64,000 nt of DNA, from positions 781 to 64,780 of the forward strand of contig CAKQUE010000001.1 in the NCBI GenBank assembly GCA_934277435.1. The letters run 5' to 3'. Below are positions 26,375 through 28,105 of this stretch, piece after piece. Position numbers and translations under genes: made by a program. A model generated the notes under the pieces. That model had not been told where the DNA came from. It did not search any database and saw only the letters and a list, made by a program, of their open reading frames with translations. This stretch comes from an uncultured Alphaproteobacteria bacterium. Lineage in GTDB: Bacteria; Pseudomonadota; Alphaproteobacteria; RF32; CAG-239. Position 1 is the stretch's first letter, and each line of letters begins with the position of its first letter.

Positions 26375-28105
26375 TTATTGCACTCTAACAACACTACAAA
26401 ATACCCCGCTGCGGCCCAACTGGCTGCAAACAGAATCACCATTTTCCAAACTTTTAACCGGTCCGACTCTTAAATGGAACAACTCTTTGCCTTGACCGTC
26501 TGCCGGCGCGTCAACTGAATAAAAAGGCTCGTACCCACCCAGCAAAGCTGAATATCTGCCCGACAAATCTTTCCATAAAGCTTCCAAATTATTAACATTA
26601 GAATCCGTGCCGAGTTCTATGGATAGATTTTCGCTATTTTGCCCGATAAACGCACTACCGTATTTATATTTTGGATATGGATTTACCGCTCCAGAATTGC
26701 AATCTTTACCACCTATCTGCTGAGTATAAGACGTAATTGAGGCATTAAATCCATTTCCTTTGGATGAAGCCCCGGCGTTACCCCCAGGATTATCATTGGC
26801 ATAATTTGGCAGCTGCATCATACCAGACAAATTACCTCCACTGAATGAAACTCCTGAACCGGAATTTGAACCAGCAGCCGCGCCGCCTGATCCACTGGAC
26901 ATAGCCCCTGCCGCAACTCCGCTGCTAACAGAACTATTTGCTCCAATGCCTGCTCCAGCGCCTGTTTCTCCCGCCGCGCTGCCACCGTATGGATTATTTG
27001 TTCCAGCAGCACCGCTTGCCGCAGCTTTGCCACCAGGAATAGCCGGTGCAATATCCCAATCATTTTGGTCATCCGCATAGGTTACATATTGCAGACCTTC
27101 TTCATCGGAGCGACGCAATTTCAAACATACCATACGTTTACCGCTGCGCATAACCATATCCCCGACACCTTCAACTATAATCAGACGATTGTTTGGACCT
27201 TTGGTTCTAAAACCAACAGGCGTTTCAACACGTTCAACGATTAAAGTCACAATAGGACGCTGCGTCATATTTAAGGCTTTTTCACCAAGGTCAATATAAG
27301 TAAAAATGTCATCTCGCCATACTCTTTCCGGCGCAATAATTACATCATCAGGATTTGGAACATATATTTCAATATCAAATCTGAATTTTGTCGGGTCCAT
27401 CGGTATACTTTTCAACCAATCTTCTTTTTGAAAACGATTGGTAAAAGTGGAATCAACGCTTTTAGAACCGCTGTTGCGAAAAGCTGTTGCATTTACATGG
27501 CGTGAGCCACCGCTTCCTAATACCCCCGTACTACTGGGACTGTCTCCCGATGAACCGTTGCCACCAACCACATCAATATCAATAATTGAGTTGGTTAAAC
27601 GCTCAGTGTTGACGCCTTCACTTTTAATATAGAAAACATATTTATTGCCGGAACGCCCGTTAATAACAACGTTGCTGTCCACGCCAACCTGACTTCCCTT
27701 TTGCGGATATAACATAACGGTGTTCGGAGGAGATATCTCACCGCCAAAAGAACCTATATCACCAAATGAAACATTTTCTATCAGTTCCCATTCTGGAAAG
27801 TTAACCAAGGTAATCATACCTTCGCGCACACGAATAGGCAAAACTAAATCCGGTGTCCAATAATATTTTGAGTACGCAGGCTTTGTTTGTCCTTCGCCCA
27901 AGTTTTGCAAAGGATCCTGCCAAGCACTTTGTATCATGCCAATAGAATTTCCTAATCCGGCATAATTTAAATTCATAGGCTGATAGTTTCCTTGTGACTG
28001 ATCATCATATTGATCCATCGTATCTTCCAACAATTGAGCACGACAGACACCAGCTGTAAACAACACAGCCACTATAACAATCCATTTCCCCATACTCATT
28101 TTCAT
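26375..28105 (-). CDS. virB9: VirB9/TrbG/CagX-like outer-membrane core protein with C-terminal Gly/Ser/Ala-rich linker and SPOR-like domain
   Basis: Signal peptide; VirB9 N- and C-domains (…FRFDIEIYVPN…IFTYIDLGE…IVTLIVERVETPVGF…); C-terminal …LFHLRVGPVKSLENGDSVCSQLGRSGVFCSVVR resembles SPOR fold. Confidence 0.65.
   Translation of the reverse strand: MKMSMGKWIVIVAVLFTAGVCRAQLLEDTMDQYDDQSQGNYQPMNLNYAGLGNSIGMIQSAWQDPLQNLGEGQTKPAYSKYYWTPDLVLPIRVREGMITLVNFPEWELIENVSFGDIGSFGGEISPPNTVMLYPQKGSQVGVDSNVVINGRSGNKYVFYIKSEGVNTERLTNSIIDIDVVGGNGSSGDSPSSTGVLGSGGSRHVNATAFRNSGSKSVDSTFTNRFQKEDWLKSIPMDPTKFRFDIEIYVPNPDDVIIAPERVWRDDIFTYIDLGEKALNMTQRPIVTLIVERVETPVGFRTKGPNNRLIIVEGVGDMVMRSGKRMVCLKLRRSDEEGLQYVTYADDQNDWDIAPAIPGGKAAASGAAGTNNPYGGSAAGETGAGAGIGANSSVSSGVAAGAMSSGSGGAAAGSNSGSGVSFSGGNLSGMMQLPNYANDNPGGNAGASSKGNGFNASITSYTQQIGGKDCNSGAVNPYPKYKYGSAFIGQNSENLSIELGTDSNVNNLEALWKDLSGRYSALLGGYEPFYSVDAPADGQGKELFHLRVGPVKSLENGDSVCSQLGRSGVFCSVVRVQ

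Follow-up and report, generated by a model that had tools for sequence, protein, structure and literature searches.

A VirB9 protein with a C-terminal SPOR-family domain in a type IV secretion locus of uncultured Alphaproteobacteria

The gene described here lies in a stretch of 64,000 nucleotides (the window) from contig CAKQUE010000001.1, which derives from an uncultured alphaproteobacterium of the RF32 lineage and carries a type IV secretion system (T4SS) operon. In the open reading frame (ORF) list of the window, it appears at 26375..28105 on the minus strand as a 576-residue ORF with an ATG start. Its product consists of four parts, namely a Sec signal peptide, a VirB9/CagX core, a hypervariable linker, and an 83-residue C-terminal SPOR-family domain (Table 1). 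An earlier reading of these letters alone (the sequence-only reading) had proposed that a long low-complexity linker joins VirB9 to a SPOR-like domain, and this arrangement was borne out by a Pfam SPOR match above the gathering cut-off and by a structure model of SPOR topology. The boundaries it gave (residues ~1–370 for VirB9, then ~130 and ~70 residues) were close, and they are refined here to 1–23, 24–352, 353–475, 476–493, and 494–576. The signal peptide is predicted to place the protein in the periplasm.

The conservation of each part was expressed as mean identity to the query in an alignment of 24 homologues, which are 66–78% identical overall as whole proteins. The signal peptide has 27% identity and keeps its length. 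The extension that follows it has 80% identity and a length of 54–61 residues, has no Pfam match, and is modelled with low confidence. The two VirB9 domains are also well preserved, the N-terminal one at 77% identity (99–101 residues) and the C-terminal one at 90% (130 residues). The linker has 21% identity and varies in length from 76 to 123 residues. Its family-wide composition is 23% Gly, 13% Ser, 12% Ala, and 11% Asn, and residues 370–500 of the query contain 22% Gly, 17% Ser, 13% Ala, and 11% Asn. In the full-length model, the predicted local distance difference test (pLDDT) score of the linker is ~26–36 across most of its length. After the linker comes a pre-domain segment of fixed length (18 residues, 67% identity), in which Y480, K481, and G483 are invariant and model confidence is low to moderate. 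The SPOR domain has 88% identity and is 83 residues long in the 24 homologues, which makes it second in conservation within the protein; strong purifying selection on this tail is shown by the alignment. Free drift of the linker in sequence and length, beside a terminal domain that hardly changes, is what marks a flexible tether with a functional module.

Three independent lines, taken from sequence comparison and structure modelling, assign the tail to the SPOR family by fold and homology. Within the whole protein, residues 496–574 match the Pfam SPOR family (PF05036) marginally, with 21.8 bits against a cut-off of 21. The C-terminal 102 residues taken in isolation match above the cut-off with 26.7 bits (E value 6.9e-6), and 20 of 20 family members tested match as well. 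More distant VirB9 tails score 17–25 bits against Pfam SPOR or go undetected. Structure prediction of the last 102 residues gave a confident SPOR-like fold, with a mean pLDDT of 82 and β-α-β-β-α-β topology. The three best Foldseek matches of this model are the SPOR domain of RlpA from P. aeruginosa, with and without denuded glycan, and the SPOR domain of CwlC from B. subtilis. These RlpA and CwlC matches reach template-modelling (TM) scores of 0.70–0.76 on the target, and they are followed, after a gap, by generic ferredoxin-like folds. The SPOR domain is again confident within an otherwise poor full-length model.

When 1.84 billion representative proteins were searched with a tail profile, only 209 matched. 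The best long matches are all CagX proteins with the tail, and those ranked next have two or three bona fide SPOR domains each (79–110 bits against Pfam SPOR), often with TPR or ankyrin repeats. Compared with a profile made only from those non-VirB9 SPOR domains, the query tail matches over its whole length with 86 bits. Common to both groups are a W-x-x-L helix, an F/Y-R-L-R-x-G-P motif, and a Cys pair located in α2 and β4, which is found in at least 195 of the 201 aligned non-VirB9 SPOR domains. Within the close family, E497, D501, H544, R546, C560, and C570 are invariant, as is a Gly-Pro turn. The nearest relatives found outside VirB9 are alphaproteobacterial two-Cys multi-SPOR proteins with TPR or ankyrin repeats and two to three SPOR copies, which have no linkage to a T4SS domain. 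The tail also shares with the SPOR domains of RlpA, CwlC, FtsN, DamX, and DedD a Pfam match and the G-x-x, R-x-G-P, and Gly-Pro motifs. Canonical SPOR proteins likewise have a long disordered linker to an envelope anchor, and RlpA is also anchored in the outer membrane. However, their SPOR domains sit on a division protein or a wall hydrolase, while the query tail sits on a secretion-system subunit.

An artefact, in the form of an assembly or frameshift error that joins two genes or of a chance SPOR match in a low-complexity tail, was considered and is ruled out by conservation, leaving it with practically no chance of being correct. It could draw on the whole-protein SPOR score, which barely exceeds the Pfam cut-off, and on the low-complexity sequence of the linker. 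However, the fusion is a single ORF throughout, in protein clusters numbering more than 1100 and in each of the 80 species loci retained by the genome scan described below, which come from many independent assemblies. In addition, the tail ranks second in conservation among the protein parts, the SPOR match recurs in every family member tested, and SPOR structures come topmost in two independent fold searches.

The region upstream of the linker belongs to the VirB9 superfamily. Pfam CagX/VirB9 (PF03524) matches residues 79–328 with 41.3 bits against a cut-off of 34.2, and the long distant homologues all match it with 47–75 bits. For the full-length model, Foldseek ranks four VirB9 chains highest (6gyb_B, E value 1.5e-7; 8rt6_B; 7o3t_B; 8rt6_v), and SPOR domains come next. 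This model is poor overall (pLDDT 47.6), with only the N-terminal one of the VirB9 domains confident, and it was used solely for that domain, the SPOR domain, and the low-confidence linker. Plasmid TrbG/VirB9 proteins of Alphaproteobacteria align to residues 5–332 with 25–37% identity. A full-length profile searched against solved structures gave no sequence-level match to VirB9 structures, and the NCBIfam VirB9 equivalog TIGR02781 (P-type VirB9) scores 25.4 bits, far under its cut-off of 217.7. On these sequence comparisons, the protein is a divergent member of the VirB9 superfamily and no equivalog of the Agrobacterium-type protein.

Compared with VirB9/TrbG/CagX of type IVA systems (X. citri, 6GYB; R388 TrwF, 8RT6 and 7O3T), the protein has the same PF03524 match, fold, and Sec signal peptide, and its gene has the same placement between virB8 and virB10 with a small lipoprotein gene nearby. 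It differs from them by a C-terminal linker and SPOR tail of ~225 residues and by the conserved N-terminal extension of 55 residues. Tail-less relatives from Paracaedimonas, Roseibium, and Magnetospirillum plasmids have 318–342 residues, so the query protein is about twice as long.

The fusion is widespread among uncultured Alphaproteobacteria. The whole-protein search gave the clusters mentioned above, and the 120 clusters listed have 513–584 residues, most of them aligning across the full query; those with names are "TrbG/VirB9 family" proteins of uncultured Alphaproteobacteria. A genome scan with one genome per species matched 160 loci, of which 80 were kept. These 80 loci come from gut metagenome-assembled genomes of human, ruminant, horse, rabbit, mouse, and chicken. 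In 80 of 80 loci, the genes for virB8, lipoprotein, virB8, virB9-SPOR, and the 1267-residue protein follow one another in this order, with VirB10 next in 79 and VirB11 in 67; the missing cases agree with truncation at contig ends, as seen in short loci that were examined. About 12 further, more divergent clusters (at the 50% identity level) have CagX plus the tail by Pfam scan and, where named, also belong to uncultured Alphaproteobacteria. In another protein, P0124 (478 residues), a DUF2961 segment stands together with the SPOR tail and with no more of CagX than its C-terminal half; the gene call is chimeric, or the fusion is of a different kind.

The closest plasmid relatives in cultured bacteria, VirB9s with a shorter, Pro-rich linker and an 85-residue two-Cys tail, are those of the Sphingomonadales Sphingosinicella sp. 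BN140058 (430 residues; NZ_CP035502.1, 9001–10293 of the locus) and Erythrobacter aureus YH-07 (432 residues; NZ_CP031358.1, 8923–10221 of the locus). Their tails are missed by Pfam, but an alphaproteobacterial SPOR profile matches them end to end with 26–28 bits. They have Asp at the position of a conserved SPOR glutamine discussed below, and their records carry no SPOR annotation. Both loci include VirD4, and one also includes a MobA/MobL relaxase. Plasmid relatives from Azospirillum, Magnetospirillum, Roseibium, and Paracaedimonas have no tail. Together, the plasmid and metagenome occurrences make the fusion a recurring, un-annotated architecture of alphaproteobacterial T4SSs and no one-off. 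Database annotation of these proteins is plain "TrbG/VirB9". In the published literature, no paper was found that pairs "VirB9" with "SPOR domain", and none on RF32 Alphaproteobacteria with type IV secretion; those found that pair "SPOR domain" with "T4SS" do not appear, from title and abstract, to describe such a fusion.

Two further plasmid loci deserve mention. A Microvirga plasmid VirB9 (550 residues; NZ_CP069357.1, 2746–4398 of the locus) was considered as a SPOR fusion and was not counted, as neither profile matched it. It has a long Pro/Ala/Val-rich extension and a final two-Cys segment of ~80 residues (…SSICDVRRRHGDTCLVAE) that looks SPOR-like by eye. On Azospirillum argentinense plasmid p5, which encodes a tail-less relative, a gene for an "OmpA family protein" (1596–2069 of the locus) lies beside the T4SS genes, and its product may be an alternative, separately encoded peptidoglycan-binding partner.

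The T4SS genes of the window are co-directional, and their flanks encode YidC, a GTPase, LptB, LptA/C, DegP, HflK/C, and UvrA. These housekeeping flanks indicate that the T4SS is chromosomal. Judged only by its size and position, the small lipoprotein is a candidate VirB7-like protein that would partner the C-terminal domain of VirB9. The 1267-residue protein has 13 β-flower stretches and a transmembrane segment at residues 15–43. In the VirB10 homologue, which also has NCBIfam ComB10 and VirB10 domain matches, the TrbI domain covers only residues 1101–1302 and is preceded by β-flower (PF21785) repeats and a signal-peptide-like N-terminus. Together, the two large proteins, kept in 79 (VirB10) and 80 of 80 loci, resemble a greatly expanded, possibly split, N-terminal part of VirB10.

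At the start of the operon, the VirB3-like protein matches Pfam VirB3 weakly (20.4 bits), and the three VirB2 paralogues match TrbC with 26.1, 34.7, and 32.9 bits. The usual place of VirB5 and VirB6 is between virB4 and virB8. Of the five signal-peptide proteins encoded there, none has an informative Pfam match or a hydrophobic profile that is polytopic and VirB6-like. One of these genes, called as a 1372-residue ORF at 29999–34117 (minus strand), overlaps the upstream ORF at 33984–35219 by 134 nucleotides; its likelier start is Met51 at position 33967 (MKKIIYILAFF..., a typical signal peptide), which removes the overlap. VirD4 and a relaxase were not found in the window. The order virB8-lipoprotein-virB8-virB9 (the three upstream genes at 28123–29982) and the three tandem VirB2 genes (42392–43538) recall the duplicated-component layout of Rickettsiales vir-homologue (rvh) systems. 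A type IVb-pilus-like cluster at 43849–55466 adjoins the T4SS operon and is divergently transcribed. It encodes a TcpQ-like protein, a secretin, a PilO-type accessory protein, a T2SSE ATPase, and a T2SSF platform protein, with a second T2SSE ATPase on the opposite strand.

Table 1. Parts of the VirB9-SPOR protein and neighbouring genes of the T4SS operon in the window
Feature	Positions	Strand	Residues	Basis or remarks
Sec-type signal peptide of VirB9 (...TAGVCRA/QLL)	28037..28105	-	1-23	Hydrophobic segment, residues 3-21
Conserved N-terminal extension	27872..28036	-	24-78	Precedes Pfam VirB9 match
VirB9/CagX core	27050..27871	-	79-352	Pfam PF03524 and Foldseek
Core, N-terminal β-sandwich			79-178	
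Core, Gly/Ser interdomain stretch			179-222	
Core, C-terminal domain			223-352	
Gly/Ser/Ala/Asn low-complexity linker	26681..27049	-	353-475	Predicted disordered
Conserved pre-domain segment	26627..26680	-	476-493	NPYPxYKYGSxF
SPOR-family domain (83 residues)	26378..26626	-	494-576	
SPOR β1			493-501	LSIELGTD
SPOR α1			504-517	
SPOR β2			526-532	
SPOR β3			542-550	LFHLRVGPV
SPOR α2			553-565	
SPOR β4			571-575	
VirB11 ATPase	17358..18332	-		TIGR02788 144.7 bits, under equivalog cut-off; Pfam T2SSE
VirB10 homologue, 1406 residues	18342..22562	-		Pfam TrbI 105.3 bits, Bflower_2 175.6 bits
Membrane-anchored β-flower repeat protein, 1267 residues, between virB9 and virB10	22562..26365	-		Bflower_2 217.7 bits
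VirB8 paralogue directly upstream of virB9	28123..28869	-		PF04335, 79.9 bits; syntenic in 80/80 loci
Lipoprotein, 63 residues (lipobox LSAC)	28889..29080	-		Weak LPAM_1 match; 76-100% identity, 80/80 loci
Second VirB8 paralogue	29227..29982	-		PF04335, 51.2 bits; syntenic
Five signal-peptide proteins, 261, 460, 566, 411, and ~1320 residues	29999-39164	-		
VirB4 ATPase	39233..41662	-		Pfam CagE_TrbE_VirB, 56 bits
VirB3-like protein, 142-residue secreted protein, three VirB2/TrbC pilin paralogues	41659..43538	-		T4SS operon start

The function favoured here is that the tail tethers or positions the outer-membrane core of the T4SS on peptidoglycan, possibly with altered ligand specificity, and the probability of this reading is put at roughly 55%. 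The gene product is the VirB9 subunit for the outer-membrane core of a chromosomal T4SS of VirB/Trb type, conserved across a gut and rumen clade of uncultured Alphaproteobacteria. After Sec export, its two β-sandwich domains would, as in the rest of the family, join the core together with VirB10 and the small VirB7-like lipoprotein. The outer-membrane core is 14-fold in known type IVA systems (PMC9302130). With a ring of that kind, the C-terminal end of each VirB9 copy would carry a disordered linker of ~120 residues (76–123 in homologues) and a disulfide-capable SPOR-family domain. A spacer of this length would probably bridge the gap between the outer-membrane core and the sacculus. By binding glycan strands of the sacculus under the outer membrane, the SPOR modules would then tether the channel or set its position. 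Should the modules have kept a preference for peptide-free (septal or polar) glycan, septa would capture the machine and new poles would inherit it.

Such a wall-tether mechanism is made plausible by the precedents of RlpA, DotK/Dis1, and the PilQ AMIN domains. RlpA, a lipoprotein of the outer membrane, has its SPOR domain at the C-terminus (PMC6895207). In the Legionella Dot/Icm outer-membrane complex, the OmpA-like subunits DotK and Dis1 are of the peptidoglycan-binding kind and are auxiliary and non-essential (PMC9302130). As in the query, a peptidoglycan-binding-type module is physically attached to a T4SS outer-membrane core, but these modules have an OmpA-like fold and are separate lipoproteins of a type IVB system, while the query has a SPOR domain fused to a VirB9-class subunit of type IVA. 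The AMIN domains of PilQ bind septal peptidoglycan, and both anchoring and recruitment to the division site have been shown experimentally (PMC5285504). Here the likeness lies in a peptidoglycan-binding-type module fused to an outer-membrane channel subunit, in a pilus machine without a dedicated hydrolase. The differences are that AMIN has its own fold and is N-terminal on a secretin, and that its function has been demonstrated, while that of the VirB9 tail is inferred. Further peptidoglycan-binding modules on such machines are the LysM domain of TsaP and the OmpA domain of TagL. The sequence-only reading had called the fusion an unusual architectural solution, which is overstated: DotK and Dis1 were already known from the Dot/Icm complex, and SPOR-like tails occur on Sphingomonadales plasmid VirB9s. 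The concept of a peptidoglycan-binding module on an outer-membrane component of a secretion machine is already well established, and the general picture is unchanged.

Several observations weigh against tethering by this tail. The VirB9 C-terminal domain is modelled with low confidence, and the tail profile, searched against solved structures, gave no sequence-level match to any SPOR structure; the family is too far from the crystallised examples, so fold searches carried the argument. The other observations concern the glycan-binding surface. The crystal structure of RlpA with glycan shows the ligand on the β-sheet, with main-chain hydrogen bonds accounting for much of the binding (PMC6895207). 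The highly conserved RlpA Q270 bonds the lactyl carboxylate of N-acetylmuramic acid and the N-acetyl group of N-acetylglucosamine, F274 makes a CH/π contact, and R302, R309, and R311 form a basic patch (PMC6895207). Mapped to the query through profile alignments, Q270 corresponds to E497, A273 to T500, F274 to D501, L307 to L542, R309 to H544, and R311 to R546, and the R302 equivalent cannot be mapped as the loop differs in the tail.

At the glycan-contacting Gln (RlpA Q270, FtsN Q251), Glu is found in 30 of 31 VirB9-type tails, whereas the nearest non-VirB9 SPOR domains have Gln in 122 of 166 and Glu in 27 of 166 (~16%). The aromatic position is Asp, Asn, Gly, Ala, His, or Ser in VirB9-type tails and never Phe or Tyr, compared to Phe or Tyr in 102 of 180 of the nearest non-VirB9 domains. 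The R309 equivalent is His in this clade and Arg in 23 of 36 tails overall; R546, the equivalent of R311, is invariant in the close family. In addition, the tail is acidic, with a net charge of -3 and an isoelectric point (pI) of 4.9, compared to pI 9–10 for RlpA, CwlC, and DedD, and denuded glycan is itself anionic. The median pI is 5.0 for VirB9-type tails and 8.0 for their nearest non-VirB9 SPOR relatives. It has been reported that FtsN Q251 is the most conserved residue of the glycan cleft (bioRxiv 10.1101/2024.05.13.594014). The same preprint states that the Q251E change in the isolated FtsN domain lowers both septal localisation and denuded-glycan binding (bioRxiv 10.1101/2024.05.13.594014).

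With Glu for Gln, Asp for the Phe of RlpA, and a pI of 4.9, the expectation that the tail binds denuded glycan like a canonical SPOR domain is not established. The tail lacks two residue-level hallmarks of the denuded-glycan-binding class and is therefore classed as a divergent SPOR-family domain and not as a demonstrated denuded-glycan binder. Given its acidity and the Glu in place of the key Gln, it may have a ligand other than the one bound by canonical SPOR domains. The two-Cys multi-SPOR relatives, in contrast, mostly have Gln and Phe or Tyr and are on average neutral to basic.

These residues bear directly on a second explanation, in which the SPOR fold has been repurposed: derived from an alphaproteobacterial two-Cys SPOR domain, the tail would have lost denuded-glycan binding and acquired another ligand. 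A modified glycan (for example N-deacetylated and positively charged) is one candidate for this ligand, and a protein partner, such as the adjacent β-flower giants or VirB10, is another. This explanation is rather unlikely. It fits the near-universal change of Gln to Glu, the replacement of the aromatic contact by Asp, Asn, or Gly, and the downward shift in median pI. The 88% conservation of the tail is high for a family whose members typically share less than 20% identity (bioRxiv 10.1101/2022.07.01.498525) and would fit co-evolution with a partner. Moreover, in simulations N-deacetylated glycan leaves RlpA and is unable to hydrogen-bond to Q270 (PMC6895207), and a carboxylate at that position could plausibly invert the preference. 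However, Glu occurs naturally in about one in six of the nearest bona fide SPOR copies, so function need not be abolished by it. R546 and the backbone-forming Gly-Pro turn are kept, and RlpA binding is largely through the main chain (PMC6895207). A floppy linker of 76–123 residues is also better suited to reaching a layer some way off, for instance the sacculus, than to docking on an adjacent subunit, and no partner has been identified.

A third explanation extends wall binding to the assembly of the machine. By analogy with PilQ, the tail may serve mainly to recruit VirB9 monomers to septal peptide-free peptidoglycan, so that the core is built into the nascent pole and a dedicated lytic transglycosylase (VirB1) is not needed; this is considered improbable. 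It sharpens a suggestion of the sequence-only reading, in which the tail may compensate for the missing VirB1. It agrees with the ORFs scanned in the 64-kb window, including the whole T4SS operon, among which, with the rest of the genome unseen, no SLT/lysozyme-like protein and no VirB1 were found. SPOR domains characteristically target septal denuded glycan (PMC6895207), and PilQ AMIN recruits the type IVa pilus machine to future division sites, where hydrolases have been argued to be unnecessary (PMC5285504). The tail-bearing Sphingosinicella and Erythrobacter plasmid loci also have no annotated lytic transglycosylase. However, the Q to E and F to D changes and the acidic surface speak against canonical recognition of denuded glycan. 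The tail-less Azospirillum, Magnetospirillum, and Roseibium clusters have no annotated VirB1 either, so no correlation is seen between the tail and VirB1 loss; this comparison of two tail-bearing and three tail-less loci was made by annotation, with many genes "hypothetical", and is uninformative. Furthermore, VirB1 or a housekeeping transglycosylase may lie outside the 64 kb, and several operon proteins have no known function.

For the biology of these bacteria, tethering of the core to the wall, the favoured reading, touches on a problem that is partly understood, namely how T4SS cores cross or attach to peptidoglycan and how they are positioned, often at the poles. The VirB9 tail gives a testable handle on it, which is available in plasmids of cultivable Sphingomonadales. 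In addition, the tails form a well-populated SPOR subfamily that naturally carries Q-to-E, reportedly an experimental loss-of-binding change in FtsN, and they bear on the ligand specificity of SPOR domains. In a speculative extension, to which little weight is given, the tails would be a distinct acidic "Glu-type" SPOR subfamily whose ligand has shifted, perhaps to N-deacetylated or otherwise modified glycan or to a non-glycan partner, and fourteen copies per core would act as a wall address tag that installs the T4SS at septa or new poles without VirB1. If true, such an address tag would be the T4SS counterpart of pre-installation by PilQ AMIN and a natural experiment on the way specificity is encoded in SPOR domains.

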